A DNA stretch of 38,224 nt. Source: a virus (taxonomy: Duplodnaviria; Heunggongvirae; Uroviricota; Caudoviricetes). Positions within the stretch are counted from its first letter, which is position 1. Each line of letters starts with the position of its first letter. The DNA lies in the IMG/VR virus record IMGVR_UViG_2541047899_000010, positions 1 through 38,224 of that record; one strand, written 5' to 3'. Below are positions 10,998-37,893 of this stretch, piece after piece. Under the pieces are notes generated by a model that was not told the origin of the DNA, did not search any database, and saw only the letters and a program-made list of their open reading frames with translations. Position numbers and translations under genes: made by a program.

Positions 10998-10999
10998 AA

Positions 11000-12404: not shown

Positions 12405-12735
12405 GCAGGTGACGGGGGAACAGCCCGCGTTTCAGGGGGTAAATAGCATCCCCTGAACGATGTCGCAGCGACACAACAGAATGGCTGTATTTCTCACGCT
12501 GAGCGTGAAAAAGACGTGAGGGCTTTTGATTTGATGGGGTGGCAGATAAGGCCGTCAAAATCGCACTGAGGCGGCGAGAACATGCAGTCAGCGCGATGGG
12601 ATTGTGTAAGAGTCTGACTGTCGATGATGGCAATCAGCAGGAAAGCATCGTGAAATTATCTGACTGATACAGGAGCTGGAGAGTCGGGGCATAAATTTTT
12701 TATGCCCCGGCGAAGCAGCAGACAAGCGAAGCGCG

Positions 12736-18547: not shown

Positions 18548-19042
18548 ATGAGTATGGTTGCCAGAACCAACCCCGGACCCGCAGAGGACGACATCACCGA
18601 TACCGATGATGGTGATACCCGTATTTCAGCGGGTGCATTCTGGCCGGATATTGTGCTGCGTGAACTGCGTCTGGCGGTACGACTGCCGGGCCGTGTGACC
18701 ACCTCCCGCCTGCTGCATACCGCCACCGGGGCCGTGGCACACGTTACCCGCGAGCTGGAAGCGTGGCAGCAGGAACAGCAGGCGGCTGGCCATCAGACGC
18801 TGGCCGATGTTCCGGCACCCGTAATTAACGGAGAAAGCGTCAATCTCTGGCACTGGCGCAATGCGGTTTACACCGCCACACGCGCCCTGATTCTGGAGCG
18901 TTACCGCGATGCGGACACAACGGACAAGGGCGACCGCCGGGCGGACGCACTGGATATACAGACATCGGATTTGTGGCGCGATGTGAGCTGGGCCATCTCT
19001 GACATTCTGTGCCGCCCGCGAATCTTTGCGGAGTTGTGCTGA
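18548..19042 (+). CDS. L: Head completion/stabilisation protein (P2 gpL-like)
   Basis: ATG at 18548 has AGGAG 8 nt upstream; about 164 aa; position between M and X. Confidence 0.75.
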   Translation: MSMVARTNPGPAEDDITDTDDGDTRISAGAFWPDIVLRELRLAVRLPGRVTTSRLLHTATGAVAHVTRELEAWQQEQQAAGHQTLADVPAPVINGESVNLWHWRNAVYTATRALILERYRDADTTDKGDRRADALDIQTSDLWRDVSWAISDILCRPRIFAELC

Positions 19043-19242
19043 TGAAAGTGAAGGCACTGGAAGGCGACACCGTGGATTCGCTCTGTTTCCGGTACTACGG
19101 CACGACGCAGGGCGTCACCGAAAAGGTGCTGGATACCAACCCCGGACTCTGTCAGCAGGTATTTCTGGACGCCGGGCAGGAAGTGGAGATGCCGGAGCCG
19201 GAGAAGAAGAAACGAGAAATGATTCAGTTGTGGGGGGAGTAG
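19042..19242 (+). CDS. X: Tail protein X (P2 gpX-like)
   Basis: 66 aa. MKVKALEGDTVDSLCFRYYGTTQGV...NPGL recalled as matching P2 X (MKTFALQGDTLDAICVRYYG...). Start overlaps the L stop. Confidence 0.85.
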   Translation: MKVKALEGDTVDSLCFRYYGTTQGVTEKVLDTNPGLCQQVFLDAGQEVEMPEPEKKKREMIQLWGE

Positions 19243-19244
19243 CA

Positions 19245-19568
19245 GTGAGCACCATTCAAACAGGGATCACAGAGCAGGTTATTGCGTGGCTCTTTGACCA
19301 CCTGCCAACGGTGTATGCAGTAGGCGCGGCGGTCAGCATTTCCGCGCTGATGAGTCTTTATGACGGACGAACACTGGTTCAGACCGTAACGGGATCGCTG
19401 GCGTGCGGCGTTCTTGCCATGGCCGTGGCCGGGTCGTTGCGCTTCTTCGGGTTTCCTGAAGATGCCGTGACGTTTATCGGCGCATCAATCGGTTTTATGG
19501 GCGCAGAGAAAGCACGCGACAAGGTTATTGCGGCCTTTAATCGCAGGGTGAAGGAGAAGGACGAATGA
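19245..19568 (+). CDS. Holin (gpY position)
   Basis: GTG start preceded by TGGGGGGAG; 107 aa with three hydrophobic segments. The longer ORF from 19026 overlaps X out of frame and is rejected. Confidence 0.6.
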   Translation: MSTIQTGITEQVIAWLFDHLPTVYAVGAAVSISALMSLYDGRTLVQTVTGSLACGVLAMAVAGSLRFFGFPEDAVTFIGASIGFMGAEKARDKVIAAFNRRVKEKDE

Positions 19569-19957
19569 GCAACACATTTAAATTCAGCAGCCGGAGCGAA
19601 AAGAATTTGCAGGGCGTAAATCCTGATCTGGTGAAAGTGACCCGACGGGCACTGGAAATTTCGGAAGTGGATTTTGGTATCACCGAAGGGTTGCGCAGCC
19701 GTTACCGCCAGAAGCAACTGGTGGCCACGGGTAAGAGCCAGACCATGAACAGCCGCCACCTTACGGGACATGCCGTGGATGTTGTGGCTTATATCGGCAG
19801 CCAGGTGTCATGGGAATGGCCGCTGTACGAAAAAATCGCAGCAGCATTCAGACAGGCCAGCCGGGAACTGAATATTCCGGTGGAATGGGGCGGCGACTGG
19901 AAGACCCTGAAAGACGGACCGCATTTTCAGTTACCACACGGAGCCTATCCGGCATGA
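19565..19957 (+). CDS. Endolysin, L-alanyl-D-glutamate peptidase (Peptidase_M15-type)
   Basis: 130 aa; ATGA-coupled to the holin. Zinc-ligand-like H/D/H spacing (SRH..DVV...GPHFQL) resembles T5-type M15 endolysins, not the P2 K lysozyme fold. Confidence 0.7.
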   Translation: MSNTFKFSSRSEKNLQGVNPDLVKVTRRALEISEVDFGITEGLRSRYRQKQLVATGKSQTMNSRHLTGHAVDVVAYIGSQVSWEWPLYEKIAAAFRQASRELNIPVEWGGDWKTLKDGPHFQLPHGAYPA

Positions 19958-20361
19958 AGCTCTGGCCCACGCTGGGTGTCGCTTTCCTTCTGATTGCCGC
20001 ATGGGGAACATCCATGCGCCTGTCGTGGTCGCTGGGCCGGGAGAACGCCAGAAACGAAGCGCAGGCCAGCGCCCTGAAAAGTACCGTCGACACCCTGAAT
20101 ATCATCAGCACCGGGGTGCAGGATATGCAGCAGGTGCTGGCGCAACTCCGCGTGGAAAATCAGCAACGCAATCAGGACGGAGAGGCCAGACGTGAACAGC
20201 TACGCAACGATATTGCAAAAGATGAATGCGCCCACGCTTTGCCTGACGCTCGTTTTACTGACAGGTTGCGCAGGCACGCAGAACGCGCCACGGCCAGCGC
20301 CGTCAGTCCGGCTTATACCGCAGACGCTGACCATACCGGTAACGCCTCCCCCCTTCCCTGA
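19954..20361 (+). CDS. lysB: LysB-like inner-membrane spanin
   Basis: Internal ATG at 19954 overlaps the endolysin stop (ATGA). N-terminal TM (MKLWPTLGVAFLLIAAWG) then coiled coil. Confidence 0.6.
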   Translation: MKLWPTLGVAFLLIAAWGTSMRLSWSLGRENARNEAQASALKSTVDTLNIISTGVQDMQQVLAQLRVENQQRNQDGEARREQLRNDIAKDECAHALPDARFTDRLRRHAERATASAVSPAYTADADHTGNASPLP

Positions 20362-20512
20362 CTCTCCCACATGGGGAAATCTCGGTATATGGGGCGACCG
20401 CCTTCTGGATGCACTGGAAACCTGTAACACGGATAAACGGGCCATTGAATTACTGGAACAGCGCAGGCTGCAAAGACTGAACAACGAGGACAACAACCAT
20501 GCTGAAAACTGA
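20222..20512 (+). CDS. lysC: LysC-like outer-membrane lipoprotein spanin
   Basis: Begins inside lysB in another frame; signal peptide plus lipobox LLTGC; Pro-rich. Confidence 0.55.
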   Translation: MNAPTLCLTLVLLTGCAGTQNAPRPAPSVRLIPQTLTIPVTPPPFPDSPTWGNLGIWGDRLLDALETCNTDKRAIELLEQRRLQRLNNEDNNHAEN

Positions 20513-20966
20513 TTCCCTGCGTGAAGCCATGACCCGTTCATGCCGATGGTGTCAGGCCAACCCGGAAAAATTCACCATTTTCGTGGAGAGCGGCAACATT
20601 GAAACGACAGGAGAAACCCCATCGTTTGTTTACCGCTATCAGATGGTGATGTTTGTCATGGATTACGCCGGGGAGCTGGACGACCTCACGCTGCCGCTGC
20701 TGGCGTGGTTATCCGAAAATCAGCCACAGTTGTTGCTCAACCCTGAGCGTAATCAGGACATCAAATTCTCCGCCGTTATCAATGACGATGACAGCGCCGA
20801 TCTCCTGTTTACGCTCCCCCTGCGGGAACGCGTTCGCATCACGCGCAGCAGTCAGGGCACACCGCAGGCAGAACACCTGCCGGAGCCAAAACCCCGCCTG
20901 CCATCTTCCGAAGGCGACTGGTCGCATGTATTCCAGGATGTGACGTGGGGTGAAAGCGATGGATAA
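20499..20966 (+). CDS. R: Tail completion protein R (P2 gpR-like)
   Basis: 155 aa, same length as P2 R. MLKTDSLREAMT...FVESGNIETTGE recalled as matching. Confidence 0.8.
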   Translation: MLKTDSLREAMTRSCRWCQANPEKFTIFVESGNIETTGETPSFVYRYQMVMFVMDYAGELDDLTLPLLAWLSENQPQLLLNPERNQDIKFSAVINDDDSADLLFTLPLRERVRITRSSQGTPQAEHLPEPKPRLPSSEGDWSHVFQDVTWGESDG

Positions 20967-21594
20967 GGCATTCACCCGCGTGGATGAAACCTTTGAGGCC
21001 ATCCGCGACAGCCTGAATCAGCAGGCCATCAATAACATCGCCAGAAAGCTGGCACAGGATTTACGCCGCGCCCAGCAGGCGCGTATCCGGTCACAGAAAG
21101 CGCCGGACGGGACCGCGTGGACACCACGCAGACGCCGCGTAACCCGGATACAGGAGCGCATTCGCTTTATCTGGAATAACGAAGCACGCACGCTGAAAAA
21201 CTGGCATCACGACACGGGGAAATACGGGCGAACCATTACCGGGTGGGATGAGGATAAAAACAATATCCGCACGTTTTACCGGGATGACATCGACCGTTTT
21301 CTGGAAATACGCACCCGGCGCATCAACCAGGACAGCACAAAGCGCGTCCCCATGTTCGTAAAACTGCGCACCGCCCGCTACCTGAAAGCCCGTGCAGATG
21401 CTTCCGGTGTGACGGTGGGTTACAGCGGCGTGGCCGCACGTATTGCACGCGTTCATCAGTTCGGTGAGCGCGATCAGGTTGCGCCGGGCATTTTCACCGA
21501 TTACCCGGTACGTGAGCTGCTGGGTATCAGCCAGGCAGATGAGCGCCTGATTTATAACACGGTGCTGGGCCGGATTGCGGAGGCTGTACGGTGA
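20959..21594 (+). CDS. S: Tail completion/virion morphogenesis protein S (gpS-like)
   Basis: ATG at 20959 overlaps the R stop; position between R and V. Longer than P2 S. Confidence 0.65.
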   Translation: MDKAFTRVDETFEAIRDSLNQQAINNIARKLAQDLRRAQQARIRSQKAPDGTAWTPRRRRVTRIQERIRFIWNNEARTLKNWHHDTGKYGRTITGWDEDKNNIRTFYRDDIDRFLEIRTRRINQDSTKRVPMFVKLRTARYLKARADASGVTVGYSGVAARIARVHQFGERDQVAPGIFTDYPVRELLGISQADERLIYNTVLGRIAEAVR

Positions 21595-22172
21595 GCGCAG
21601 AACTCATGCGACTGCTGAGCAATATCATCCGCACCGGGATCATCTCTGAAGTTGATGAGGAATCCTGGTGCGTGCGCGTTCGCAGCGGCGAACTGGAAAC
21701 AGGCTGGTTGCGCTGGAACACCACGCGCGCGGGAGCCTTCAATGTGTGGCTGCCGCCATCACCAGGCGAACAGGTGGTAATTGCCTGCATTGGCGGCAAC
21801 CCGGAAACCGCCATGATAATTGGCAGCCTGTGGAGTGATGCCAGTCCGGCCCCCGGCAAAAGCCTGAAAGAAATCGTGGTCAGCGCGCCGGATGGCGCGG
21901 TGTTCCGCTACGACGCGGACGCAGGCGCACTGAGCGCCAGCGGCATGAAAACGGCCACTTTACAGGCATCCGTCAGCGTGACACTGGACACGCCCGTCGT
22001 GGAATGCACAGACCTTCTGAGAACGGCGACGCTTGACGTCACAAAAGGGGGAAAGATGAGCGGCAATATCACGCACAGCGGCGGCAATTTCACCTCAAAC
22101 GGCATTACCGTGCATACGCATAAACACGGTGGCGTGAAAGGTGGCAGCGATTCGACAGGAGGCCCGCAGTGA
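21591..22172 (+). CDS. V: Baseplate spike/assembly protein V (P2 gpV-like)
   Basis: ...RTGIISEVD..., VVIACIGG and GNITHSGGNFTSNGITVHTHKHGG recalled as matching P2 V (...GNIEHTGGELSSNGKVLHTHKHPG...). GTG start overlapping the S stop; an ATG at 21606 is an alternative. Confidence 0.8.
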   Translation: MSAELMRLLSNIIRTGIISEVDEESWCVRVRSGELETGWLRWNTTRAGAFNVWLPPSPGEQVVIACIGGNPETAMIIGSLWSDASPAPGKSLKEIVVSAPDGAVFRYDADAGALSASGMKTATLQASVSVTLDTPVVECTDLLRTATLDVTKGGKMSGNITHSGGNFTSNGITVHTHKHGGVKGGSDSTGGPQ

Positions 22173-22519
22173 CAACCCGCTACACAGGAATGAACCCGGA
22201 CGGAACGGGAAACCTGAACGAAATGGAGCACCTGAAACAGTCAGTCAGGGACATCCTGACCACCCCGCTGGCAAGCCGGGTTATGCGACGGGAATATGGC
22301 AGCCTTGTGCCTGATTTGATTGACGAACCCATGAATAACACCACGCGTCTGCAATGCATGAGTGCTGCCGTGATTGCGCTGACACGATGGGAACCCCGCA
22401 TTGCCCTGGATGCCATCGACGTTGTCTGGAAAGCGGGAGGCCGCGCCGGGGTGACGCTGTCGGGCACTGTCATGCAGACCATGCAGAATGTTGAATTAAC
22501 CATCACGCTGAGGGAGTAA
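22169..22519 (+). CDS. W: Baseplate wedge protein W (GPW/gp25 family)
   Basis: MTTRYTGMN...VMRREYGSL recalled as matching P2 W (MTARYLGMN...VMRRDYGSL). GTG start overlapping the V stop. Confidence 0.8.
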   Translation: MTTRYTGMNPDGTGNLNEMEHLKQSVRDILTTPLASRVMRREYGSLVPDLIDEPMNNTTRLQCMSAAVIALTRWEPRIALDAIDVVWKAGGRAGVTLSGTVMQTMQNVELTITLRE

Positions 22520-22522
22520 ATC

Positions 22523-23419
22523 ATGCCCGCCGTTGACCTTTCACAATTACCGGAACCCGCCATCATAGCGGAGCCTGACTTTGAGGCAATTCTGGCTGAC
22601 ACAAAGGCCATGATGATTGCGTCCTATCCTGCCGAACAGCGTGAAGCCGTCTCCGCCGCGCTGGAGCTGGAATCGGAACCCCTGAACGTTATCGCTCAAA
22701 CCATGTCTTTTCGTGAAATGCTGTTACGCCAGCGGGTTAACGAGGGCGCACGCGCCTGCATGTTAAGCCACGGTTCAGGGACAAACCTGGACAACCTCGC
22801 GGGCAATATGAACACAAAGCGCCTGGTTATCACTCCGGCAACGGATACCACCGACGCGGTGATGGAGAGCGACACCTCGCTGAGATTGCGGGCGCAGCGG
22901 GCGTACGACGGCCTGAGTGTTGCTGGCCCGTCAGGTGCATACGAGTATTTTGCACGCAGCGCCAGCGGTCTGGTGCGCGATGCGCGAGCTATCAGCCCGT
23001 CTCCGGCCTGTGTGACGGTTTCCATTCTGTCCACTGAAGGCGACGGCACAGCAACGGAGGCGTTGCTTAATACCGTTCGCGCCGTTCTGAATGCAGAGGA
23101 TACCCGCCCGGTGGCCGACCGCCTGACGGTACAGAGCGCCAGAATCGTGACATGGCGGCTGAAGGCAAAACTGTACTTTTATCCCGGCCCGGAATCCGAA
23201 CCTATTCTGGCTGCGGCTGAATCGTCGTTCAGGAAGTGGCTGGCTGAGCAGGGGCTTATCGGTCAGGACGTGGCGTTGTCCGCCATTGCTGCCGCACTGC
23301 ATGTGCACGGTGTGCAACGCGTGGAGATAATCGAACCCACACAGAATATGGCCATCAGCGACATACAGGCGGCGCGCTGTGAGTCATTCACCATCAGCGA
23401 AGGTGGGCGTAATGAGTAA
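22523..23419 (+). CDS. J: Baseplate assembly protein J (P2 gpJ-like)
   Basis: 298 aa; size and position between W and I. Confidence 0.8.
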   Translation: MPAVDLSQLPEPAIIAEPDFEAILADTKAMMIASYPAEQREAVSAALELESEPLNVIAQTMSFREMLLRQRVNEGARACMLSHGSGTNLDNLAGNMNTKRLVITPATDTTDAVMESDTSLRLRAQRAYDGLSVAGPSGAYEYFARSASGLVRDARAISPSPACVTVSILSTEGDGTATEALLNTVRAVLNAEDTRPVADRLTVQSARIVTWRLKAKLYFYPGPESEPILAAAESSFRKWLAEQGLIGQDVALSAIAAALHVHGVQRVEIIEPTQNMAISDIQAARCESFTISEGGRNE

Positions 23420-23942
23420 TTCGTTGTTACCACCATCAGCCAGCAATTTCATGCGTTGTGCCGAAGCCGTCGGAACACGCATTACAGACATTCCGGTAGA
23501 CCTCAACACGCTGTGGTCGCCGGACACCTGCCCGGTGCATCTGCTGCCTTATCTCGCCTGGGCGTTTTCCGTTGACCGCTGGGATCGCAACTGGCCGGAA
23601 GAGACAAAGCGACAGGTTATTCGTGATGCATGGCTGATACACCGACACAAAGGGACCATCAGCGCACTGCGCCGGGCCATTGAGCCGCTGGGATACCTCA
23701 TTCGCGTGTCTGAGTGGTGGGAGTTCGGCGGAGAACCGGGAACATTTACCGTTGAAGTCGGCACGCTGGACAGTGGCGTGACGGAGGAAATGTATCTGGA
23801 AATGGAGCGGTTGATTGCTGATGCCCGTCCGGTCAGCCGCCACATGACAGGGCTGAATATCATTCAGGAGATCCCGGGAGATATTTTCGCGGCGGCAGCA
23901 ACTTACGACGGTGAAGTCATTACCATTTATCCGGACGATTAA
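23412..23942 (+). CDS. I: Baseplate protein I (P2 gpI-like)
   Basis: ATG at 23412 overlaps the J stop; 176 aa, the size of P2 I. Confidence 0.75.
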   Translation: MSNSLLPPSASNFMRCAEAVGTRITDIPVDLNTLWSPDTCPVHLLPYLAWAFSVDRWDRNWPEETKRQVIRDAWLIHRHKGTISALRRAIEPLGYLIRVSEWWEFGGEPGTFTVEVGTLDSGVTEEMYLEMERLIADARPVSRHMTGLNIIQEIPGDIFAAAATYDGEVITIYPDD

Positions 23943-23944
23943 GC

Positions 23945-26095
23945 ATGAGTACCACAACACGTAAATTTAAAACCGTTATCACCGATACGGGTGCCAAAAA
24001 ATTAGCTCAGGCAGCCGCGCCAGATGGTAAGCCTGTCCGCCTGACTCATATGGCCGTGGGCGACGGTGGCGGTACATTGCCCACACCTGACAGTAAGCAG
24101 ACCCGTCTGGTGCATGAGGTGTGGCGACATACTGTTAATCGCGTCATCCTGGACGCAACACATCAGAACCGTATTATTGCAGAGCTGGTTATTCCTCCTG
24201 AAACGGGCGGATTCTGGATCCGGGAAATTGGTGTATTTGATGAGCACGGCGATTTAATCGCGGTGGGCAATACTGCCGAAAGTTACAAGCCAGCCGTTGC
24301 CGAAGGGTCCGGTCGTGCACAAACATTTCGCACCATTCTGACCGTATCCAGCACTGCCACCGTGGCGCTTACCGTGGATAACACCATGGTGATGGCCACA
24401 GTGGATTACGTGGATGACAAACTGAAAGAGCATGAACAGTCACGACGTCACCCGGACGCCTCGCTGACCGCAAAAGGCTTTGTTCAACTCAGTAGCGCTA
24501 CTAACAGCGTGTCTGAAACGCAGGCTGCAACGCCGAAAGCAGTAAAGGCCGCGTATGACCTTGCTAACGGTAAATATACTGCGCAGGATGCCAGCACGAC
24601 GCGAAAAGGCCTTGTCCAGCTCAGTAGCGCCACCAACAGCACGTCTGAAACGCAGGCTGCAACGCCGAAAGCAGTAAAGGCCGCGTATGACCTTGCTAAC
24701 GCAAAATATACCGCTCAGGACGCCACGACGGCACAAAAAGGGATAGTCCAGCTCAGTAGTGCCACCAACAGCACGTCTGAAACACTGGCCGCGACATCGA
24801 AAGCGGTTAAGGCGGTAATGGATGAAACGAACAAGAAAGCGCCCTTAAACAGTCCTGCGCTGACCGGAACGCCAACAACGCCAACTGCGCGACAGGGAAC
24901 GAATAATACCCAAATCGCAAGCACGGCTTTCGTTATGGCTGCGATTGCCGCCCTTGTAGATTCGTCACCTGACGCACTGAATACGCTGAACGAGTTAGCG
25001 GCGGCGCTGGGAAACGACCCGAATTTTGCGACCACCATGACTAACGCGCTTGCGGGTAAGCAACCGAAAGATGCCACCCTGACGGCGCTGGCCGGGCTTG
25101 CTACTGCGGCAGACAGGTTTCCGTATTTTACGGGGAATGATGTCGCCAGCCTGGCAACCCTGACAAAAGTCGGGCGGGATATTCTTGCGAAATCGACCGT
25201 TGCTGCCGTTATCGAATACCTCGGTTTACAAGAAACGGTAAACAGGGCTGGTAACGCCGTGCAAAAAAATGGCGATACTTTGTCCGGTGGGCTTACTTTT
25301 GAAAATGACTCAATCCTTGCCTGGATTCGAAATACTGACTGGGCGAAGATTGGATTTAAAAATGATGCCGATGGTGACACTGATTCATACATGTGGTTTG
25401 AGACAGGCGACAACGGCAATGAATATTTCAAATGGAGAAGCAAACAAAGCACCACAACAAAAGACCTGATGACGCTGAAATGGGATGCACTAAATATTCT
25501 TGTTAATGCCGTCATTAATGGCAGCCTTGGAGTTGGTACGACGAATGCGTTAGGTGGTAGCTCTATTGTTTTTGGTGATAATGATACCGGATTTAAACAG
25601 AATGGAGACGGTATTCTTGATGTTTATGCTAATAGTCAGCGTGTATTCCGCTTTCAGAATGGAGTGGCTATTGCTTTTAAAAATATTCAGGCTGGGGATG
25701 GTAAAAAATTCACGCTATCCAGCTCCAACAACTCCACGAAGAACGTAGGGTTTAATTTATGGGGCGCTTCATCAAGACCAACTGTTGCAGAGCTTGGTGA
25801 TGATTCAGGCTGGCATTTCTATAGTCAGCGAAATACAGATAACTCGGTGATATTTGCTGTAAACGGTCAGATACAACCCAGCAACTGGGGGAATTTTGAT
25901 TCACGCTATGTGAGAGATGTCAGACTTGGCACGCGTGTTGTTCAAACTATGCAAAAAGGCGTGATGTATGAAAAATCAGGCCATGCAATTACGGGGCTTG
26001 GCATTGTCGGCGAAGTTGATGGCGATGATCCGGCTGTGTTCAGACCAATACAAAAATACATCAATGGCACATGGTATAACGTTGCACAGGTATAA
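23945..26095 (+). CDS. H: Tail fibre protein H with constant N-terminal part and invertible C-terminal part (current orientation)
   Basis: 716 aa with three tandem 39-aa phage tail-fibre repeats (QLSSATNSTSETQAATPKAVKAAYDLAN). The crossover site at 25209..25234 lies in frame within the gene (...AAVIEYLGLQE...). Confidence 0.9.
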   Translation: MSTTTRKFKTVITDTGAKKLAQAAAPDGKPVRLTHMAVGDGGGTLPTPDSKQTRLVHEVWRHTVNRVILDATHQNRIIAELVIPPETGGFWIREIGVFDEHGDLIAVGNTAESYKPAVAEGSGRAQTFRTILTVSSTATVALTVDNTMVMATVDYVDDKLKEHEQSRRHPDASLTAKGFVQLSSATNSVSETQAATPKAVKAAYDLANGKYTAQDASTTRKGLVQLSSATNSTSETQAATPKAVKAAYDLANAKYTAQDATTAQKGIVQLSSATNSTSETLAATSKAVKAVMDETNKKAPLNSPALTGTPTTPTARQGTNNTQIASTAFVMAAIAALVDSSPDALNTLNELAAALGNDPNFATTMTNALAGKQPKDATLTALAGLATAADRFPYFTGNDVASLATLTKVGRDILAKSTVAAVIEYLGLQETVNRAGNAVQKNGDTLSGGLTFENDSILAWIRNTDWAKIGFKNDADGDTDSYMWFETGDNGNEYFKWRSKQSTTTKDLMTLKWDALNILVNAVINGSLGVGTTNALGGSSIVFGDNDTGFKQNGDGILDVYANSQRVFRFQNGVAIAFKNIQAGDGKKFTLSSSNNSTKNVGFNLWGASSRPTVAELGDDSGWHFYSQRNTDNSVIFAVNGQIQPSNWGNFDSRYVRDVRLGTRVVQTMQKGVMYEKSGHAITGLGIVGEVDGDDPAVFRPIQKYINGTWYNVAQV
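24464..24820. repeat. Three tandem 117-bp repeats within tail fibre gene H
   Basis: A 55-nt core (gaaacgcaggctgcaacgccgaaagcagtaaaggccgcgtatgaccttgctaacg) recurs exactly at about 24518 and 24648, with a third diverged copy. Confidence 0.8.
25209..25234. other. Left 26-bp gix/hix-like crossover site for the DNA invertase
   Basis: TTATCGAATACCTCGGTTTACAAGAA; inverted match to the site at 27887..27912; resembles the Mu gix sequence (recalled). Confidence 0.8.
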
Positions 26096-26098
26096 ATC

Positions 26099-26626
26099 AT
26101 GCAGCATTTAAAAAACATTACTGCTGGCAATCCTAAAACAAAAGAGCAATATCAGCTAACAAAGAATTTTGATGTTATCTGGTTGTGGTCAGAAGATGGG
26201 AAAAACTGGTACGAGGAATTAAAGAACTTTCAGGAAGACACAATAAAAATTCTTTATGACGAGAATAATATTATTGTCGCCATCACCAAAGATGCCTCCA
26301 CGCTTAACCCTGAAGGCTATAGCGTCGTTGAAGTTCCTGATATTACAGCTAATCGCCGTGCCGATGATTCAGGTAAGTGGATGTTTAAGGACGGGGCTGT
26401 AGTTAAGCGGATTTATACGGCAGACGAACAGCAACAACAGGCCAAATCACAAAAGGCCGCATTACTTTCCGAAGCTGAATCAGTTATCCAGCCACTGGAA
26501 CGCGCTGTCAGGCTGAACATGGCGACGGATGAGGAACGCGCACGACTGGAGTCATGGGAACGCTACAGCGTTCTGGTCAGCCGTGTGGATACAGCAAATC
26601 CCGAATGGCCACAAAAGCCTGAATAA
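26099..26626 (+). CDS. G: Tail fibre assembly chaperone G
   Basis: 175 aa; N-terminus [22 protein letters not shown]; immediately follows H. Confidence 0.85.
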
Positions 26627-26632
26627 AAATTA

Positions 26633-26651
26633 AGGCCCGATAGCGGGCCTT
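26633..26651. terminator. Hairpin between convergent G and G'
   Basis: aggcccg-atag-cgggcct stem-loop; the T-run is on the minus-strand side. Confidence 0.4.
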
Positions 26652-26654
26652 GTC

Positions 26655-27188
26655 TCATTCAGGTTGTTTGGGAAATGTTACTGGCAGGCTGGAGGTGTCT
26701 GTGGATTCGACTTTCTGCGCGTAGAGCATCCACTCTGTTAATTTTTGTTTATTCTCGTCGGAAATGATACCCAGCCGTAGCTGTGAGTCCCATAGCTGGG
26801 TTTTATCCCTGACGAGCTGTAGCAAGCTTTGCTTTTCATTTTCCGCTTGTTGCCTCTGCTCTTCCTCGGTATAAGTTCGCTTTACCACTACGCCATCTTT
26901 GAACATCCATTTACCCGAAATATCAGCCCGGCGATTTGCTGTAATATCAGGTAATTCAACGACGCTTGCGCCTTCTGGATTAATTGCTGAAACATCCTTT
27001 TCAATACAAATAATAACGCCGTTATGGTCATAGACCATTTTCAACGTATCAGACTGGAAATTCTTTTGTTCCTCATACCAGTTTTTTCCATCCTCTGTAT
27101 AAAGCCATTTGATGTTAAATTGCTTTGTTAGCTGATATTGCTCTTTTGTTTTAGGATTGCCAGCAGTAATGTTTTTTAAGTGCATCAT
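26655..27188 (-). CDS. Alternative tail fibre assembly chaperone G' (expressed after inversion)
   Basis: 177 aa; N-terminus [22 protein letters not shown] is near-identical to G for about 22 residues, then diverges. Confidence 0.8.
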   Translation of the reverse strand: MMHLKNITAGNPKTKEQYQLTKQFNIKWLYTEDGKNWYEEQKNFQSDTLKMVYDHNGVIICIEKDVSAINPEGASVVELPDITANRRADISGKWMFKDGVVVKRTYTEEEQRQQAENEKQSLLQLVRDKTQLWDSQLRLGIISDENKQKLTEWMLYAQKVESTDTSSLPVTFPKQPE

Positions 27189-27190
27189 CG

Positions 27191-27904
27191 TTAAATACTC
27201 CCCGCGTTATACCACGTCCCATTAATGCAATACTGAATTGGCCTTGCCTGAGTTGTATCAATTAATTCGTCACGGTTTCCGTTAACTGAACCTGTAACGA
27301 CATAACCTGACTTATCAGACCAACCAGGCCCATTCCATGTTTGAACAGATGACAGTCCTCCTAAACGGACACCTGTAATAAATCGTGAATTACATTCCGC
27401 TTTAGTATATGCACCAACATCTCCTGCTGAAGGTTTTCTGGTGGTGGTGTAAAATTCGGACCAGTCGGCTTCAAAACCATAACCATCACGGGCTGAACGA
27501 TAAAAAATACCGCCATTTTTATAATTAATCCGAAACTGAGCTGCAGGACAACTTCCTTCTCCCATATAAAAATGAATAATTAACGTTGATGCACCACTAA
27601 TAGTTGCGTTATAGGCTCCGCTACTCCAGTTCCATCCAACTGCTTTATCATTCGCAACGGTGCTTCCTGTTTTCCCTAAGGCAAACGCACCAACATGACT
27701 TGCTTTTAATGTGATATCGGAGGAACCATCAAAAGCCACATTGCTTATTTTCCTGGCAGTTTTTAATTTTGCAGCTGTAGAAGCATTGCCGGATAGTTCA
27801 CCAGAAAGGCCACCGCTGAATGTTTGTCGATTAGTCCAGGTATTCGCTGTACTGAGTAACGGTATTTTCTCCCCGCTTGTGCCGAGTTCTCGTAAACCGA
27901 GGTT
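27191..27904 (-). CDS. Alternative tail fibre C-terminal segment Hv' (promoterless, fuses to the H constant part after inversion)
   Basis: The frame is open from 27904 and continuous with the H frame through the crossover site (predicted junction ...IEYLGLRELGTSGEK...). No start codon of its own. The 5' boundary is approximate. Confidence 0.7.
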   Translation of the reverse strand, partial: NLGLRELGTSGEKIPLLSTANTWTNRQTFSGGLSGELSGNASTAAKLKTARKISNVAFDGSSDITLKASHVGAFALGKTGSTVANDKAVGWNWSSGAYNATISGASTLIIHFYMGEGSCPAAQFRINYKNGGIFYRSARDGYGFEADWSEFYTTTRKPSAGDVGAYTKAECNSRFITGVRLGGLSSVQTWNGPGWSDKSGYVVTGSVNGNRDELIDTTQARPIQYCINGTWYNAGSI

Positions 27905-27912
27905 TTAGATAA
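27887..27912. other. Right 26-bp gix/hix-like crossover site
   Basis: TTCTCGTAAACCGAGGTTTTAGATAA; its reverse complement matches the left site at 21 of 26 positions. Confidence 0.8.
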
Positions 27913-27966
27913 TGGCCGTTTCTGACCTGCATGGCATGATTTACGCTTTTGGACGGGAGATTCAGC

Positions 27967-28554
27967 GTGCTGATTGGCTATGTAAGGGTATCAACAAATG
28001 ACCAGAATACAGACCTGCAACGAAACGCTCTTGTTTGTGCAGGATGTGAACAAATATTTGAAGATAAATTAAGCGGGACAAAGACAGACCGACCGGGATT
28101 AAAACGCGCTTTAAAGCGCCTTCAAAAAGGTGACACGCTGGTTGTCTGGAAACTGGATCGCCTCGGGCGAAGCATGAAACATCTGATTTCTCTCGTCGGG
28201 GAACTACGGGAGCGAGGGATTAATTTTCGCAGTCTGACCGACAGCATAGATACATCTTCTCCAATGGGGCGTTTTTTCTTCCACGTGATGGGTGCCCTGG
28301 CTGAAATGGAACGTGAATTAATTGTTGAACGTACACTGGCCGGACTGGCGGCAGCGCGTGCACGGGGGCGCACAGGCGGACGTCGACCGAAGCTGACAAA
28401 AGAACAGCATGAGCAAATAGCAAGGCTGATCAAAAACGGGCACGACAGAAAACAACTGGCAATAATTTACGGCATTGGTATATCGACGATTTATCGTTAC
28501 CACCCCGCAGGAGAATCAAGCGGAACAATAGAGAAGAGTCAGGAAACAAAATAA
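27967..28554 (+). CDS. Serine DNA invertase (Gin/Hin/Cin/Pin family)
   Basis: GTG start giving (M)LIGYVRVSTNDQNTDLQRNAL with the catalytic Ser in the canonical position; C-terminal HTH (GISTIYRY). About 195 aa. Adjacent to the right crossover site. Confidence 0.9.
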   Translation: MLIGYVRVSTNDQNTDLQRNALVCAGCEQIFEDKLSGTKTDRPGLKRALKRLQKGDTLVVWKLDRLGRSMKHLISLVGELRERGINFRSLTDSIDTSSPMGRFFFHVMGALAEMERELIVERTLAGLAAARARGRTGGRRPKLTKEQHEQIARLIKNGHDRKQLAIIYGIGISTIYRYHPAGESSGTIEKSQETK

Positions 28555-28585
28555 CCGCTAATCTGACCATTAGCGGTTTTTGTGT
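28554..28585 (+). terminator. Intrinsic terminator after the invertase gene
   Basis: accgctaat-ctgacc-attagcggt hairpin followed by ttttgtgtt. Confidence 0.6.
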
Positions 28586-28589
28586 TAAA

Positions 28590-29078
28590 TCAGAACAGCC
28601 CTTTAACTGAACTGGCCGCGCTGTTAAGAGATGATGTCACCTTATCTTTGAAGCCGGACAGCATATCGCTGAACGATGAGGATTGCAGGCGCTCCCGCAA
28701 ATCCTCATCACAGCGTTCAAGGGTCAGTGAAAATTCTATCTTTTTCGCCTTACCGTAGCGATCAAACTCGGAACGGGTCGTATTCGTTTCAGTCAGCACA
28801 TACATGCCGTAAATCTGCCCGACACCATCAATCAGAGGCCAGGGGCGTCCTGTATATGCCTGCGTGGTCAGCAACGAAAGCGACACTTCGCCACCTGTAA
28901 TTTCAGGATAAAGCACGCCAGAAAGCACAATGCGATCATCACCTGCACCGATATACTGCCAGCTTGCTGAGCGGTTAACGCGTTCATTTTTCACATGCCG
29001 CCAGCTTTTGTTTTGCTGTAACTGCTGATGCGGCAATGTGCGCAGCTCAAAAACAAACATGCCGTAGATCATCATCAT
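28590..29078 (-). CDS. U: Tail protein U (P2 gpU-like)
   Basis: From M3 (MMMIYGMFVFELRTLP...) recalled as matching the P2 U N-terminus (MMMVLGLFVF..); GAGGAG 8 nt upstream of this ATG. Confidence 0.8.
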   Translation of the reverse strand: MMMIYGMFVFELRTLPHQQLQQNKSWRHVKNERVNRSASWQYIGAGDDRIVLSGVLYPEITGGEVSLSLLTTQAYTGRPWPLIDGVGQIYGMYVLTETNTTRSEFDRYGKAKKIEFSLTLERCDEDLRERLQSSSFSDMLSGFKDKVTSSLNSAASSVKGLF

Positions 29079-29090
29079 GGCCATGACTCC

Positions 29091-31907
29091 TCAATCTTTA
29101 TCGTAAAAACTGCCACGTCCGGCACGGGCGCGCCGTTCCATCTCTGCCCTGACCATTTCACCGACCAGTTTCGCCAGTTCGCGGGGATTCTGCGTAACAA
29201 CGTTATGCAGATGGACATGAATTTCACCACCAAATCCGGAGGCAACAGGCTCCCGGTTACGGGAAGTTACAGGAACTGATGCCACTGGCGATCGTATGGC
29301 CTCCGCCACCGGGCGGGAGCTGGCCGCAACAACAGGGACCAGCGCCGGAGGCAGCGGAGCCGGGACCACGGGGGTGATATTAATTGCGGGGGCAGGCTTA
29401 CTGACCTGCGCAATCTTCCGCTCCTGCCACTCCCCACGAACAGCAAGTGCGCGGGGCAGGTTCTTAAAGACAATATCGCCGGGGCCAATGCGTTTTTTCG
29501 TCTCATCAACCAGCTTACCTGTGTTATCAGCAATTTTGCTGAGTCTGCGTAGCGTCCCGGTATTGCTGTCTGTGAGCGGTTTGTTGTCTTTGGGTTTATC
29601 ACCTCCGGTGCCATTGCCATTTTCCACAGGCTTCGGCGGATTGATTTTCGCCAGGTCCCCCTGAAGCAAGGCAACCTTGTCCTGAAGAATGGCCGCACGC
29701 TGTGCGTCTTCGATTTTCTTGCGCGCCCTTTCCGCTTCATCCGGAAGGACGCCAAGTTTTTCAAGTATCCACGCCAGCGTATCCAGTAGCATTTTTGCAG
29801 GTGTCAGAACAAGTTGTAACGCACCGCCAAGAACGTTACCGAATATCTCGCCAGCACTGGTACATTTATCCAGCGTTTCCTTGCTGGACTCCATCGGTGA
29901 CAGCAGCGATTTAAACCAGTTAAACACCAGGCTGATCCCGCTTCCGATTGCGTCAAAAACAGGACCAAACCGTTCAAAGGTTTCGCGCAACGGGGTCAGC
30001 CTTTCCATAATCCCGCTGAACACCCCGGCAAAAAATGCCCTGATGGGATCCCAGTATTTCCAGATAAGAACGGCAGCTCCGGCAAGCGCAGCCACGATAA
30101 GACCAACCGGACTGAACAGCGCCCCGATAGCGCCTCCCAGTAAAGAAACGGAACCCGTCACCATTCCCCACAGCGCAGGCAACACCCTGACGACATTCAT
30201 TGACCGGGTAAGAATGTCAAAACCAAGACGCAGGGTGGCCAGCTTCCCGTAAAGCACCCCAATAACCAGCGACAACGAGCCAATCGTTGCAGTCATTGCC
30301 AGCAACGCACCGCCTGCTATCAGTAGCTGGCGCGTCAGCACCGGATGGGCCTGCGCCAGCGAGGTGATTTTTTCAAGCACCCGCGTGAGCCACTGCGTGA
30401 CAGAACGCAGCGGACCGTCAACCAGATCACTGATGCGAATACGAAGACCTTCCCATGCGCTGTCGAGATTTTTCAGGTCCCCATCAAGATTATCGGCCAT
30501 TACTTTTGCGACGCGATCGGCCTCTCCCCTTGCCCCCTGCAATTCTCTGGTCAGTTTTTGCAGCTCTCCTGAACCAGCCGCCGCAACAAGCGTCTGCAAA
30601 CCAACGAACGCCTCTTCTCCGGCGATGTCCTTGAAGAAGGAAACCTGGTCCACCTGTCCGTATTTTTGTGTCGCCTTATAGAGATCAAGCAGCACATCCT
30701 CCATCGGGCGCATTTTGCCTCTGGCGTCAGCAACTGACACTCCCAGCTCTTTCAGCGCATCAGCCGCAGCTTTTGGCGGTGATGCAAGGCGGGACAGACT
30801 TGCGCGCATGGCCGTACCAGCATCGCTTCCGCGAAGACCATTATTGGCAAGCATCCCGGCCATGGCTGCCGCTTCTTCAAGACTGATACCAAGTTTTGCG
30901 GCAACCGGACCGGTATACTTCATGGTTTCGCCCAGCGCGCGTAAATCAGTATTGGTCCGGGTGAATGCCGCTGTCAGCGTATCGCCAACCCGGTCCATTT
31001 GATCGGCTGTCAGGTTGAACTGTGTGAGGATATTGGAGCCTATATCAGCCGTCTCGCCGAGTTCGACGCCACCTGCCAGCGCCATATTAAGAACACCGGG
31101 CAATGCGGCCTGAATGGCCTGCGGAGTAAAACCAGCCATTGCCAGAAAGCTCTGCCCACTGGCGGCATCACTCGCAGTAAACTGTGTTTCAGAGCCAAGT
31201 TTTAACGCCTGCTCACGCAGCGCCTTAAACTGCGGGCTGTTTTTGTCGATTCGCGTCAGTGCCTGAACGCGGGACATCTCTTTGCCGAACCCGATCGCAG
31301 GCTGCAAAAAACGCCCGGCAGCATAGCCGCCCGCCGCTGCCGCACCAATTGCCAGTGCACCACCTGTTTTCAGTTTTCCCGCTGTTTCCTGCGCGCGCGA
31401 ATACCGCTCACGCGCCCGCGTTACACGCGCAAGCGCCTGCCGTTCGCGTTCAAGCTGGTTGTTGTACTGTTCGGTGCGTCTGATGGCCTGCTGGATGGTG
31501 TTATCGCTGCCTGTCAGGGAAATGCCGTGGCGTTTCAGCTCTCCGCCAAGCTCCCGCATTTTTTGAATTTCCCGTGTGCGCGATTCATTCAGGCGTTCAA
31601 GCCGGGTGCTTAACTGCTGCATCAGCTTTTGTTGTTTTTCGCTGAGCACTGTACCCGTGCGTTGTAACTGATTAAGGGCGTTAAGCTGGCGTCGTGCTTT
31701 CACGATGCCCGCATCCGCTTTACTGACAGCGTCACGGGCGCGCTCAAATGAACGCGCCTGACGCTCGAGATTTTTGATCGCCCCCTGCGTTCGCTGGATG
31801 GAGTCACCAAACTGCCCCATCAGGCGGCGGGCGTTTTCGGCAGGCCGGGTCAGCCTGTCAACGGCGCTGAAAGCGACCCGGATATCAAGAGTCTTCATTA
31901 TCTGCAT
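29091..31907 (-). CDS. T: Tail tape measure protein (P2 gpT-like)
   Basis: 938 aa, coiled-coil-rich N-terminal third and Gly/Ala-rich hydrophobic stretches typical of tape measure proteins. An ATG at 31898 is an alternative start. Confidence 0.85.
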   Translation of the reverse strand: MQIMKTLDIRVAFSAVDRLTRPAENARRLMGQFGDSIQRTQGAIKNLERQARSFERARDAVSKADAGIVKARRQLNALNQLQRTGTVLSEKQQKLMQQLSTRLERLNESRTREIQKMRELGGELKRHGISLTGSDNTIQQAIRRTEQYNNQLERERQALARVTRARERYSRAQETAGKLKTGGALAIGAAAAGGYAAGRFLQPAIGFGKEMSRVQALTRIDKNSPQFKALREQALKLGSETQFTASDAASGQSFLAMAGFTPQAIQAALPGVLNMALAGGVELGETADIGSNILTQFNLTADQMDRVGDTLTAAFTRTNTDLRALGETMKYTGPVAAKLGISLEEAAAMAGMLANNGLRGSDAGTAMRASLSRLASPPKAAADALKELGVSVADARGKMRPMEDVLLDLYKATQKYGQVDQVSFFKDIAGEEAFVGLQTLVAAAGSGELQKLTRELQGARGEADRVAKVMADNLDGDLKNLDSAWEGLRIRISDLVDGPLRSVTQWLTRVLEKITSLAQAHPVLTRQLLIAGGALLAMTATIGSLSLVIGVLYGKLATLRLGFDILTRSMNVVRVLPALWGMVTGSVSLLGGAIGALFSPVGLIVAALAGAAVLIWKYWDPIRAFFAGVFSGIMERLTPLRETFERFGPVFDAIGSGISLVFNWFKSLLSPMESSKETLDKCTSAGEIFGNVLGGALQLVLTPAKMLLDTLAWILEKLGVLPDEAERARKKIEDAQRAAILQDKVALLQGDLAKINPPKPVENGNGTGGDKPKDNKPLTDSNTGTLRRLSKIADNTGKLVDETKKRIGPGDIVFKNLPRALAVRGEWQERKIAQVSKPAPAINITPVVPAPLPPALVPVVAASSRPVAEAIRSPVASVPVTSRNREPVASGFGGEIHVHLHNVVTQNPRELAKLVGEMVRAEMERRARAGRGSFYDKD

Positions 31908-32423
31908 TCCCGCTGCGAAGTGCCGCCCGCTCGCGCCAGCTAACCACTTCGCCGGGCGTCATCATGAAGATTTCGGCGGGCGACCAGTTAAAAATGGCGG
32001 CAATATCCGCCACCAGATCTTCGATGTGCTCAAAGCACACCAGGGTGATTACGCTGCCGTCTCCTGCACGCTCTTCGCGCCAGAGTCTGGCTCGCTCATA
32101 AAATTTACAGCCACAGCGCACAACTGAATAAAATCGCGTGACGACATTTTTTTAATCATCACTTCATCCAGTCGTGGCGAGGTCACGCGAGGCAACAGCG
32201 TAAACATGGTATCCGCTTTCAGATTCAGCACATCAGACAGCGACAGACCACGCAGGGATCCAGCCTGCTCAATAGCCCCGGTGATCTCCACATACGTGAT
32301 TTTTTCGCCACCACGCTCAATTGGTCGGGTCAGTTTTACGCCACGTTCGACAGCCATATCCTCACCTGCCGTCACATCATCCGCCACGGTGTTATTCCGG
32401 GTTTCAGTATCGATGTCTTTCAT
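31885..32423 (-). CDS. Tail assembly chaperone E+E' produced by programmed -1 frameshift
   Basis: The E' frame (ORF 31885..32121) is -1 relative to E and open from 32151. An A7 run at 32147..32153 (ATT AAA AAA ATG) is the candidate slip site. The P2 E/E' precedent is recalled. Confidence 0.6.
32049..32423 (-). CDS. E: Tail assembly chaperone E (P2 gpE-like)
   Basis: 124 aa; AAGGAG 8 nt upstream of the ATG at 32423; sits between FII and T. Confidence 0.75.
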   Translation of the reverse strand: MKDIDTETRNNTVADDVTAGEDMAVERGVKLTRPIERGGEKITYVEITGAIEQAGSLRGLSLSDVLNLKADTMFTLLPRVTSPRLDEVMIKKMSSRDFIQLCAVAVNFMSEPDSGAKSVQETAA

Positions 32424-32478
32424 CAGTTGTCTCCTTTTCAGTCAGAGGCGACGCACTGCGCCGCCTGCATATTACTTA

Positions 32479-32991
32479 TCAGCCAAGCCCAAGCGCGGAA
32501 CGGATACGGTCAGGCACAATGTCCTTGCCGTCCTTCCGGTAGATGTGGTTCAACAGGTCGATTTCCCACAGCGGGCGATCGTTAACGCTCAGCTTGTAGT
32601 AGGTGTTTTTGACAGCGTAAGTGTGTGATGTGGCTTCGCCCTGTTTGGCTTCCCCCATATCAATTTCCGTCACACGCCCGCGCATCTCGATTTCATACAG
32701 ATCGCTTTCTGCATCGGTGTAGTATTCACCCGCAAAACGCAGCAGCGTGCCGTCAATCGTGCCGCCATATTTAAGGAACAGCGCACGAACAGCTCCCCCC
32801 ATAACAAAACTCGCATCAAGCGCGGAGTCGTCCAGACCGAGATCAATACTTACCGCCCCCATCATGCCACCACCACGATAGCTGTCGGTTTTGCGCGTCA
32901 GTTTGGGCGGCGTGACGGACGTCACCTTACCCACTTCGTTTTCACCATCCACAAACAGCGTAAAAAAGCGAAGATGTTTTGGTACAGCCAT
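32479..32991 (-). CDS. FII: Tail tube protein FII
   Basis: 170 aa (P2 FII is about 172); start overlaps the FI stop. Confidence 0.85.
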   Translation of the reverse strand: MAVPKHLRFFTLFVDGENEVGKVTSVTPPKLTRKTDSYRGGGMMGAVSIDLGLDDSALDASFVMGGAVRALFLKYGGTIDGTLLRFAGEYYTDAESDLYEIEMRGRVTEIDMGEAKQGEATSHTYAVKNTYYKLSVNDRPLWEIDLLNHIYRKDGKDIVPDRIRSALGLG

Positions 32992-34175
32992 CAGGCACCT
33001 CCCAGCACCGCAAATGCGGGACCAAAGAATTCATCAGTAAACGACTGGTAAAGCTCCATGTCTTCCAGCGGAGGAACGGGCGTATATTTGTAGCGAATAC
33101 GCACACGCCCCTGACGTAAATTCGTGGTGCTGTTATCCACGATGTCATACCAGCACTCCGCGCCAATCAGTTTCCCGGCAGTAACCAGTGAATCCAGTTT
33201 TGCCCTGATGGCACTGATAACATCCTTCACGTTCGCAGGCGTCAGTGGACTGTCGATGGTTTCAAACTGCGCTTCCGCAATTGAATCAGCCAGCACCTGT
33301 GCGGTTCGGGTATACACCTCAAAGATGTAGGCGTTCGTTTCCGGTGTGCGGTTGCCCCAGAAGCGGAACCCGTTGCGACGAATAATGGTCGTGATTTCTT
33401 TGTTGTTGAGGCTGTTGGCATCGCTGTCTTCGGCCTGCAACGACCAGAACACATGCCTGGACATCCCCAGCACATTTTTAACCGGAACGTTGGACAGTGA
33501 TTTGTGCCATCCCTGCTCATGGTCAATGTACGCACGAAGGCCGCACGCATAGGCAGGCGCGGGGAACGTTTCGTTTTTGCCACTTTTCGGGTTGTAGGCG
33601 ATGAAGTCCGGCCATAAGAGCATCACCTCACGTTCATTGAATTTCTGGCGGTAGGTAATCGCCTCAGCCATCGTGTTACAGCCGTGACATGAGGCATACA
33701 CAAACGCGCGCAGTTTACCCGCAATCACGCACAGGGATTTTGTTACCGCCTCCGTGTCCAGCTCCGGCGCGGCCAGAATACGCGGACGGTATCCGATGCT
33801 TTCATCCTGCTCTGCAACAAGCAGCGCATACATCCCCGTATAGCTGCCGTCAGATTCAGAACCACCGATAACCAGTTGATCCTGCGTTTTTCCGTCTTCT
33901 TCTTTGTGTTCAGCCACGCGAACGACGATCACCTTTGTGCTCACCTGGTCTGCGATGGCCTTAAGCGCACGATAAAGCGTCCCCGTTGTTCCGCATTTTC
34001 CCAGCACGTCATTGACGCGGGTCAGCAGTGTGGGCTTGTTCAGCGGGAACAGCTCCGCGTCCGCAGCATCCGCCGTTGCCACGATACCGATAACACTGGA
34101 ATCAACATCATTAATCGCTGTTACCAGGTCGGTACTTTCCGTAACACGGGCACCATGAAAACGAGTTTCACTCAT
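32991..34175 (-). CDS. FI: Contractile tail sheath protein FI
   Basis: 394 aa (P2 FI is about 396); sheath-like sequence (...FRFWGNRTPETNAYIFEVYTRTAQ...). Confidence 0.9.
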   Translation of the reverse strand: MSETRFHGARVTESTDLVTAINDVDSSVIGIVATADAADAELFPLNKPTLLTRVNDVLGKCGTTGTLYRALKAIADQVSTKVIVVRVAEHKEEDGKTQDQLVIGGSESDGSYTGMYALLVAEQDESIGYRPRILAAPELDTEAVTKSLCVIAGKLRAFVYASCHGCNTMAEAITYRQKFNEREVMLLWPDFIAYNPKSGKNETFPAPAYACGLRAYIDHEQGWHKSLSNVPVKNVLGMSRHVFWSLQAEDSDANSLNNKEITTIIRRNGFRFWGNRTPETNAYIFEVYTRTAQVLADSIAEAQFETIDSPLTPANVKDVISAIRAKLDSLVTAGKLIGAECWYDIVDNSTTNLRQGRVRIRYKYTPVPPLEDMELYQSFTDEFFGPAFAVLGGA

Positions 34176-34332
34176 AGCTTCAGCCCCTTGTATCCGTTAA
34201 ATGATTCGGCAACAATCATCACCCACCACGCGCGTAATCTCACCCCTGCGCCGTTCTCCCGACCCGGCGACAACAAAAAGCAGTAACCCCCTCCGCACGC
34301 ACATGCGACCATGCCGCACAGGGAGGGAACAG

Positions 34333-37632: not shown

Positions 37633-37893
37633 ATGTTCCGTTGTCCGCTTTGTGGCGCATCTGCCCGTATCCGCACCAGTCGTCCGGAAAATGATTCAAA
37701 CACCGTGCGGCAAAAGTATTACCAGTGTAACAATCTGGAATGCGGCGTATGCTTCTCAACACTGGAAGCTTTCCATAAATTCACATCAAAACACGCCTCC
37801 GGCGTTCACTCTTCAGAAGGTATCCCGTGGCATGAGCTGCCAGCTTCACACAGGGGAAACAATCAGATGAGCTTGCCTTTACCTCAGAATTAA
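37633..37893 (+). CDS. ogr: Ogr/Delta-family zinc-finger late-gene transcription activator
   Basis: MFRCPLCGASARIRTSR...YYQCNNLECGVCF recalled as matching P2 Ogr (MFHCPLCQHAAHARTSR...YHQCQNVNCSATF), with four Cys in the same spacing. GGGAGG upstream. Confidence 0.85.
   Translation: MFRCPLCGASARIRTSRPENDSNTVRQKYYQCNNLECGVCFSTLEAFHKFTSKHASGVHSSEGIPWHELPASHRGNNQMSLPLPQN

Follow-up and report, generated by a model that had tools for sequence, protein, structure and literature searches.

The 38,224-nucleotide stretch of viral DNA filed as IMG/VR record IMGVR_UViG_2541047899_000010 (positions 1 to 38,224; "the window" below means this whole stretch) carries what we read, with a probability of about 0.92, as an invertible tail-fibre segment with two states, a homologue of the G segment of phage Mu, lodged in a P2-like prophage of the P88 type (genus Xuanwuvirus, Peduoviridae). 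Between two crossover sites of 26 base pairs (bp) in inverted orientation lie about 2.65 kilobases (kb) holding two opposed sets of fibre C-terminus and chaperone, and a serine invertase is encoded directly to the right. An earlier note, made by a model from the letters alone, had described the region as an invertible tail-fibre shufflon and predicted that it changes host range by DNA inversion. The predicted inversion is borne out by natural genomes, which hold the segment both ways round with breakpoints inside the 26-bp sites; the word shufflon does not fit, because the locus has just two sites and a recombinase of the serine type, which makes this a simple two-state invertible segment. The parts of the switch are as follows.

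23945-26095, plus strand: gene H, tail fibre, 716 amino acids, with the left crossover site inside it (Pfam Phage_tail_fib and three Phage_fiber_2 repeats)
23945-25220, plus strand: Hc, the constant N-terminal part of H, used in both orientations (first 428 amino acids common to both)
25209-25234, plus strand: left crossover site (gixL-like), within the H reading frame, reading TTATCGAATACCTCGGTTTACAAGAA
25221-26095, plus strand: variable C-terminal cassette (Sv-equivalent, P2 H-type), joined to Hc as sequenced; the G(+)-equivalent, expressed state
26099-26626, plus strand: chaperone of the expressed cassette (gpG/U), for tail-fibre assembly (Pfam Caudo_TAP, E = 4e-36)
26655-27188, minus strand: alternative chaperone (U'-equivalent), silent as sequenced (Pfam Caudo_TAP, E = 1.4e-36)
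27191 to about 27900, minus strand: alternative C-terminal cassette (S'v-equivalent; Pfam gp37_C), extending into the right site
27887-27912, minus strand: right crossover site (gixR-like), whose reverse complement reads TTATCTAAAACCTCGGTTTACGAGAA
27967-28554, plus strand: Gin-type serine DNA invertase, 195 amino acids, from a probable GTG start 54 bases to the right of the right site

A repeat search of the window returned inverted arms at 25205-25234 and 27887-27916 (30 nucleotides, 87% complementary, 2652 nucleotides apart), and within these arms the two sites lie exactly where the earlier note had put them. We scanned the whole window with the gix/hix consensus TTATCNNAAACCNNGGTTTNCNNGAA, allowing at most three mismatches and taking the chance expectation from shuffles; the matches fall at these two loci only, where 0.01 would be expected by chance, and each site has 0-1 mismatches to the consensus. 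Split at the core, the left site reads TTATCGAATACC-TC-GGTTTACAAGAA and the reverse complement of the right site TTATCTAAAACC-TC-GGTTTACGAGAA, so that the two inverted sites agree at 23 of 26 positions and have TC as their common central dinucleotide. Mu gix (TTATCCAAAACCTCGGTTTACAGGAA) likewise matches the left site at 23 of 26 positions; both sites keep its central TC, and each departs from it at three positions, all of them outer. The locus therefore has what a switch of this family requires, namely two 26-bp imperfect palindromes, inverted, with an identical 2-bp core. No third crossover site was found anywhere in the window at up to three mismatches, nor any further AAACCNNGGTTT or looser core match, and of tyrosine recombinases the window has just one, the integrase of the prophage (1121-2263). 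A shufflon of the R64 type is accordingly ruled out, having fewer than three sites here and a serine recombinase in place of an Rci-type tyrosine enzyme.

The content of the segment also agrees with the earlier description of a variable fibre part and assembly gene on the plus strand facing a second such pair on the minus strand, since the segment holds two opposed Caudo_TAP genes and two C-terminal cassettes. The silent cassette and its chaperone are intact open reading frames, the cassette being without a start codon or promoter of its own. When the segment was inverted in silico, by cutting at the central dinucleotides of both sites and reversing the DNA between them, H remained uninterrupted at 661 amino acids, against 716 for the resident protein, with the first 428 identical; the silent cassette thus joins Hc in frame through the crossover site, as had been claimed. 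Each of the alternative C-termini is accompanied by its own chaperone and is in frame with the constant part.

Flipping was assessed by comparing public genomes. A query for the flipped left junction, built in silico from 350 nucleotides of Hc and 350 nucleotides of the silent cassette, matched Escherichia coli E423 at 100% identity over all 700 nucleotides. On either side of the segment E423 runs collinear with the window (98.1% and 97.2% identity), between these flanks 25205-27916 lies reversed at 99.5% identity, and the alignment blocks overlap precisely on the two sites; its fibre is annotated in RefSeq at 661 amino acids (1986 nucleotides), the length given by the in-silico inversion. At a coverage of at least 80%, the flipped left junction is present in 324 of 5426 complete genomes. 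For counting orientations we used the invertase-side junction, which is matched only by loci bearing the invertase, and found the window orientation 374 times and the flipped one 121 times among complete E. coli genomes, counts that hinge on how similar the cassettes are and should not be read as a rate of flipping. The native left junction (355 genomes) was not used as evidence, as non-invertible P2-type H genes match it too.

The exchange point can be located more closely in two O111:H8 isolates from bovine faeces in Nebraska, whose prophage flanks are 99.2% and 99.8% identical and which differ by inversion of a 2712-bp segment (99.8% identity). Their two sites differ from each other at positions 6 and 9 in the outer half and at positions 22-23 in the inner half. 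Between the isolates the outer half-sites stay in place and the inner half-sites are swapped; the crossover therefore took place within ACCTCGGTTTAC, 12 bp around the central TC. This swapping of inner half-sites is the signature of site-specific exchange, and the segment inverts in nature with the crossover at the core of the site.

The same breakpoints bear on whether the invertase is needed at all, since the segment could in principle be turned over by homologous recombination that depends on RecA and acts on the short inverted repeats or on the inverted chaperone genes. Inverted homology is available for this, in the 30-nucleotide repeat and in 357 nucleotides of the two chaperone genes that are 73% identical. 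In both E423 and the O111:H8 pair, however, the breakpoints lie inside the 26-bp sites and not in the chaperone repeat, recombination between the chaperone genes would leave the H fusion unchanged, and the O111:H8 exchange is confined to those 12 bp around the central dinucleotide; imperfect homology of 26-30 bp is, moreover, a very poor substrate for RecA. We find this route scarcely credible.

One further genome has an unusual layout. In E. coli O111:H21 strain 15A (NZ_CP077477.1, positions 1893-12700 of the stretch examined), mirror-image copies of V-W-J-I-Hc flank the segment on both sides, both sites have the H-type outer half, and no invertase adjoins the segment. This is either a palindromic rearrangement, formed by two prophage copies recombining at the crossover sites, or a misassembly from reads of mixed orientation.

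Invertase-driven inversion calls for an intact enzyme, and the gene to the right of the segment encodes one. The protein has a Resolvase domain (Pfam, residues 3-135, E = 1.3e-50) and HTH_7 (residues 138-181, E = 1.6e-13), in line with the Gin/Hin-type serine invertase of the earlier note; it matches PHROG 125, "DNA invertase" (E = 4e-97), and its nearest solved structures are those of Gin, 4M6F (PDB, E = 3e-101) and 3UJ3 (E about 1e-100). For the invertase, H and the chaperones, nothing in NCBIfam scored above the curated cut-offs. The reading-frame end that had been listed, 28554, is correct; the listed TTG start at 27949 is probably not, as it adds six residues absent from Gin, and GTG 27967 is the likelier start, from which translation gives VLIGYVRVST, an N-terminus as in Mu Gin. 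Within residues 1-120 the protein differs from Gin at two positions only (K39R and V120I), and overall it is 80.5% identical to Mu Gin and 99% to the P88 invertase. The earlier note had named a mutated catalytic serine as a finding that would count against a working switch; Ser9, the catalytic nucleophile of Gin (PMC3575834), is present (VLIGYVRVS9T), and the catalytic core is intact. Residue 114 is the wild-type methionine, and the crystallised Gin carries M114V, a change that makes Gin independent of Fis (PMC3575834), so the enzyme of the window is expected, from its residues, to be Fis-dependent. The protein also has K46, R47 and K50 as well as R153 and L154. In Hin, residues of helix B contact the enhancer and other residues are contacted by Fis (PMC3798978); judged by residue numbering, which is offset by one from that of Hin, K46, R47 and K50 would correspond to the former and R153 and L154 to the latter.

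The gene as a whole is a mosaic. Mismatches to Mu gin number 0-7 per 60 nucleotides up to 28326 and 25-32 beyond, placing the break at about 28327, after a near-identical 5' stretch of 360 nucleotides. A Gin-like catalytic domain is joined to a C-terminal helix-turn-helix variant of the P88 lineage, and this divergent DNA-binding domain is common to P88-type phages and a few others, including a phage annotated "Hin2".

An intact enzyme also matters to the view that the locus is a frozen relic, with no useful inversion rate today, the orientation differences among genomes then being old events or exchanges of whole tail-fibre modules. P2 itself supplies a precedent for such a fate: its H gene has a site relic, TTATCGAATATCTCGGTTTACAGGAA, at the same position in frame, with ACC changed to ATC beside the core (2406-2431 of the P2 stretch examined, NC_001895), and in P2 neither a second site nor an inverted cassette nor an invertase was found, only the single degraded site. 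P2 is thus a fixed, or frozen, single-state relative. For the window, no invertase promoter was predicted, and three of the three sequenced Xuanwuvirus phage genomes share its orientation. Set against this are the invertase reading frame, intact and only two residues away from active Gin in its first 120, two sites with the full consensus and identical cores, a silent cassette and chaperone that are still open, and the precise inversion, with inner half-sites exchanged, between related prophages of the two O111:H8 isolates. A frozen state here strikes us as highly improbable.

Two further features lie within and just beyond the invertase gene.

27968-28076: candidate recombinational enhancer (sis-equivalent, Fis-binding), inside the 5' end of the invertase gene
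28553-28578, both strands: bidirectional terminator-like hairpin with a 10-bp stem and a T-run on each strand

The candidate enhancer is 100% identical to Mu gin without gaps, synonymous positions included (the first 110 nucleotides of the gene), and the adjoining DNA diverges. In the gin/hin family the enhancer is found within the invertase gene, at a distance of about 100 bp from a crossover site (PMC3798978). An enhancer at the 5' end of the invertase gene is thus well founded as a prediction from sequence conservation. It agrees with the position in the 5' part of gin that Kahmann reportedly described in 1985. A degenerate Fis-motif scan of the region placed centres at 28007 and 28044, which are 37 bp apart and conserved in Mu, with a looser one at 28067; the Fis sites of hin lie 48 bp apart, and the motif hits could not be matched to them. 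The hairpin separates the convergent invertase and gpU genes.

Assembled from these parts, the switch would work as follows. Transcription and translation of H would enter the segment from the left, presumably from a P2-type late operon V-W-J-I-H-G. As sequenced, they would yield the 428-residue Hc joined to the P2 H-type C-terminus and then the U/G-type chaperone. The invertase would bind both 26-bp sites as dimers, and the sites would be synapsed with a Fis-bound enhancer in the 5' end of the invertase's own gene, giving an invertasome in which Ser9 would cut at the central TC, half of the tetramer would rotate through 180 degrees and the DNA would be religated. With 2.68 kb flipped, Hc would be fused in frame to the Mu S'-type C-terminus, followed by the U'-type chaperone, and a population of lysogens would yield phage with one of two receptor-binding tips and two host ranges. 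We infer this change of host range between orientations because over its C-terminal 165 amino acids the G(-)-type cassette shares 90% identity with Mu S', and the G(+)-type cassette is P2 H-like. We infer likewise the dependence on Fis and the enhancer, the expression of the invertase and the promoter arrangement, including a late promoter driving H.

Several observations weigh against an invertible segment that is active and controlled in this way. The Fis-motif centres at 28007 and 28044 come from a degenerate motif and could not be matched to published Fis sites, and when the DNA between the right site and the start codon was put through a simple scan for a sigma-70-like promoter of the invertase, none turned up. 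The DNA-binding domain shares only about 54% identity with its counterpart in Gin, so that recognition of the sites is assumed. The evidence for inversion is a comparison between genomes, and the orientation counts carry the dependence on cassette similarity given above.

The benefit of inversion might also lie elsewhere than in phage host range: its main selected role could be in the lysogen, with the invertase acting in trans on further invertible segments of the host genome, or with inversion yielding a product that changes phage defence or the surface of the cell. For PinQ and PinR of cryptic prophages, recent work claims that Pin-type inversions block adsorption of phage T2 (PMC12529663; bioRxiv 10.1101/2025.03.28.646004), and many E. 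coli genomes hold several related junctions, at up to 6-7 places per genome. The prophage in the window nevertheless looks complete (integrase, gpA, portal, terminase, lysis, full tail set and ogr), H is a late structural gene that is expected to be silent in a lysogen, and the window offers no hint of a separate promoter for the cassettes; such a role therefore seems to us very unlikely to be the main one, and a switch of phage receptor-binding tips remains our reading.

The carrier is a P2-like prophage of a well-represented type. The locus is 92% identical in nucleotides, over its full length, to Xuanwuvirus P884B11 and Citrobacter phage Shae_phiSM, with P88 closely related, and the window from 19000 to 31500 is collinear with NC_049391 at 93.7% identity. 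All share the order V-W-J-I-H-G, cassette, invertase, then U-T-E-FII-FI on the opposite strand, then D; with P2-type genes in this order and high nucleotide identity to type members, the window belongs with Xuanwuvirus. The P2-like tail module that had been proposed is evident both from this gene order and from Pfam (GpU, tape measure, tube, sheath and GPD), and elsewhere in the window Pfam recognises GPA, portal and terminase. Prophages of the P88 type are common in E. coli. Neither att direct repeats nor transfer RNA genes were found within the window, which ends short of the right end of the prophage.

The fibre shaft within Hc contains one further feature.

24454-24813: tandem shaft repeats in Hc, three of 132 nucleotides (44 amino acids) each, Phage_fiber_2

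These repeats are 74-87% identical to one another, and the alignment with phiSM shows an offset of one H repeat.

The tail genes beyond the invertase form a block of gpU, tape measure, E, FII tube and FI sheath on the minus strand (28590-34175), followed by D on the plus strand (34201-35442). In P2 the order is H-G-FI-FII-E-T-U-D, all on one strand, and the invertase of the window sits precisely at the left breakpoint of this reversed block. The reversal is a trait of the genus, because P884B11, P88 and phiSM have the same layout. A gix-like site at the other breakpoint was not found, and a search at the FI/D boundary for a pseudo-site that would account for the reversed tail operon returned nothing. 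It is conceivable that the domain swap in the chimeric invertase retuned its site recognition, insulating the switch from co-resident Mu, P1 and e14 invertases, and that an invertase at the breakpoint caused the ancestral FI-FII-E-T-U inversion distinguishing Xuanwuvirus from P2; we offer this double proposal as a long shot.

Other genes of the window have little to do with the fibre. A protein with GmrSD_N and HNH domains (35792-37375, plus strand) is inserted between D and ogr (37633-37893), and adjacent reading frames with AAA_15 and an OLD-like TOPRIM domain (10479-12199, minus strand) look like an OLD/Gabija-type nuclease that is apparently split in two; both loci resemble cargo directed against phages and carried in P2-type hotspots. 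Positions 9073-10032 (plus strand) encode a ParM-type actin-like partition protein, and a Hok/Gef-like small toxin reading frame (MSQKSLTAITFCVTAILIIWMLHGSLCEIR...; 38084-38224, plus strand) reaches the right end of the window, relatives having a gene annotated as Hok/Gef or MokW-like after ogr.

The mechanism itself is textbook knowledge from Mu Gin and the G segment, and annotated examples of the arrangement already exist among P88-type phages and in hundreds of E. coli genomes; only mildly unusual are the chimeric invertase and its place at the breakpoint of the reversed tail operon. Such loci do have consequences for annotation. In NZ_CP077515.1 (8641-9351 of the stretch examined) the silent cassette is entered by RefSeq as a pseudogene, incomplete and "missing N-terminus", an artefact that the switch produces in annotation; pipelines label the silent cassette as truncated or as a pseudogene and assign a different fibre according to the orientation caught at sequencing. 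The paper on P88 deals with the tail-fibre determinants of host range without mention of an invertase or of inversion (PMC5285337). Host-range work on P88-type phages should allow for lysates that mix two fibre types, and the lysates in that study may have held both.

Among known systems the nearest carriers are P88, P884B11 and phiSM themselves, at 92-97% nucleotide identity, with the same gene order and segment orientation and with sites at equivalent positions. In their records a "DNA invertase" is already annotated, together with a tail-fibre fragment and two proteins for tail-fibre assembly. These phages differ from the window in the cassettes and in the number of 44-residue repeats in H, which is 716 amino acids long in the window, 764 in P88 and 672 in phiSM, and this suggests that the copy number of the shaft repeat varies among relatives. 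P2 is close in its proteins, with H 81% identical to the whole H of the window and G 92% identical to the expressed chaperone.

The description as Mu G-segment-like was right in kind and understated the relation. Mu and D108 share not only the order Sc, gixL, Sv-U, U'-S'v, gixR, gin but also about 91% nucleotide identity over U, U', the distal part of S'v, gixR and the 5' two-thirds of gin. Mu U is 94% identical in amino acids to the expressed chaperone, Mu U' 97% identical to the silent one, and Mu S' 90% identical to the C-terminal 165 amino acids of the silent cassette. The differences lie in the fibre and in the carrier: the constant part in the window is of the P2 gpH type, with 15% identity to Mu S; the expressed cassette is P2 H-type, residues 423-714 of H being 49% identical to Mu S; the S'v cassette is 85 amino acids shorter (234 against 319 amino acids, translated from the site); and the segment rides in a P2-like prophage, whereas Mu is a transposable phage.

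The C segment of P1 is flanked by 0.6-kb inverted repeats, and the P1 C segment with Cin has 88% nucleotide identity to the window locus over part of the query. Flipping within clonal cultures has been demonstrated by sequencing and polymerase chain reaction for e14 and for Mu-like and P2-like prophages of enteropathogenic E. coli (EPEC) (PMC4272514), and the inversion in Fels-2 was deduced from a comparison of LT2 with LT7 (PMC7953296). The P2-like invertible loci of EPEC E2348/69 (PMC4272514) were considered as the same element and ruled out, being of the same kind only: the EPEC and e14 systems have pin-type sites (AAACCTTGGTTTGGGAGAA) and segments of about 1.9 kb, one of them with three sites and four states. 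Tail fibres are an enriched class among programmed inversions (PMC9881135), and P1 with Cin, the e14 P segment with Pin, Fels-2 with Fin and the P2-like prophages of EPEC E2348/69 all exchange fibre C-termini by a serine invertase, as the window locus does. It is a member of the Gin/Hin/Cin/Pin tail-fibre switches, closest in its segment to Mu and D108 and in its carrier to the phages of the P88 type.

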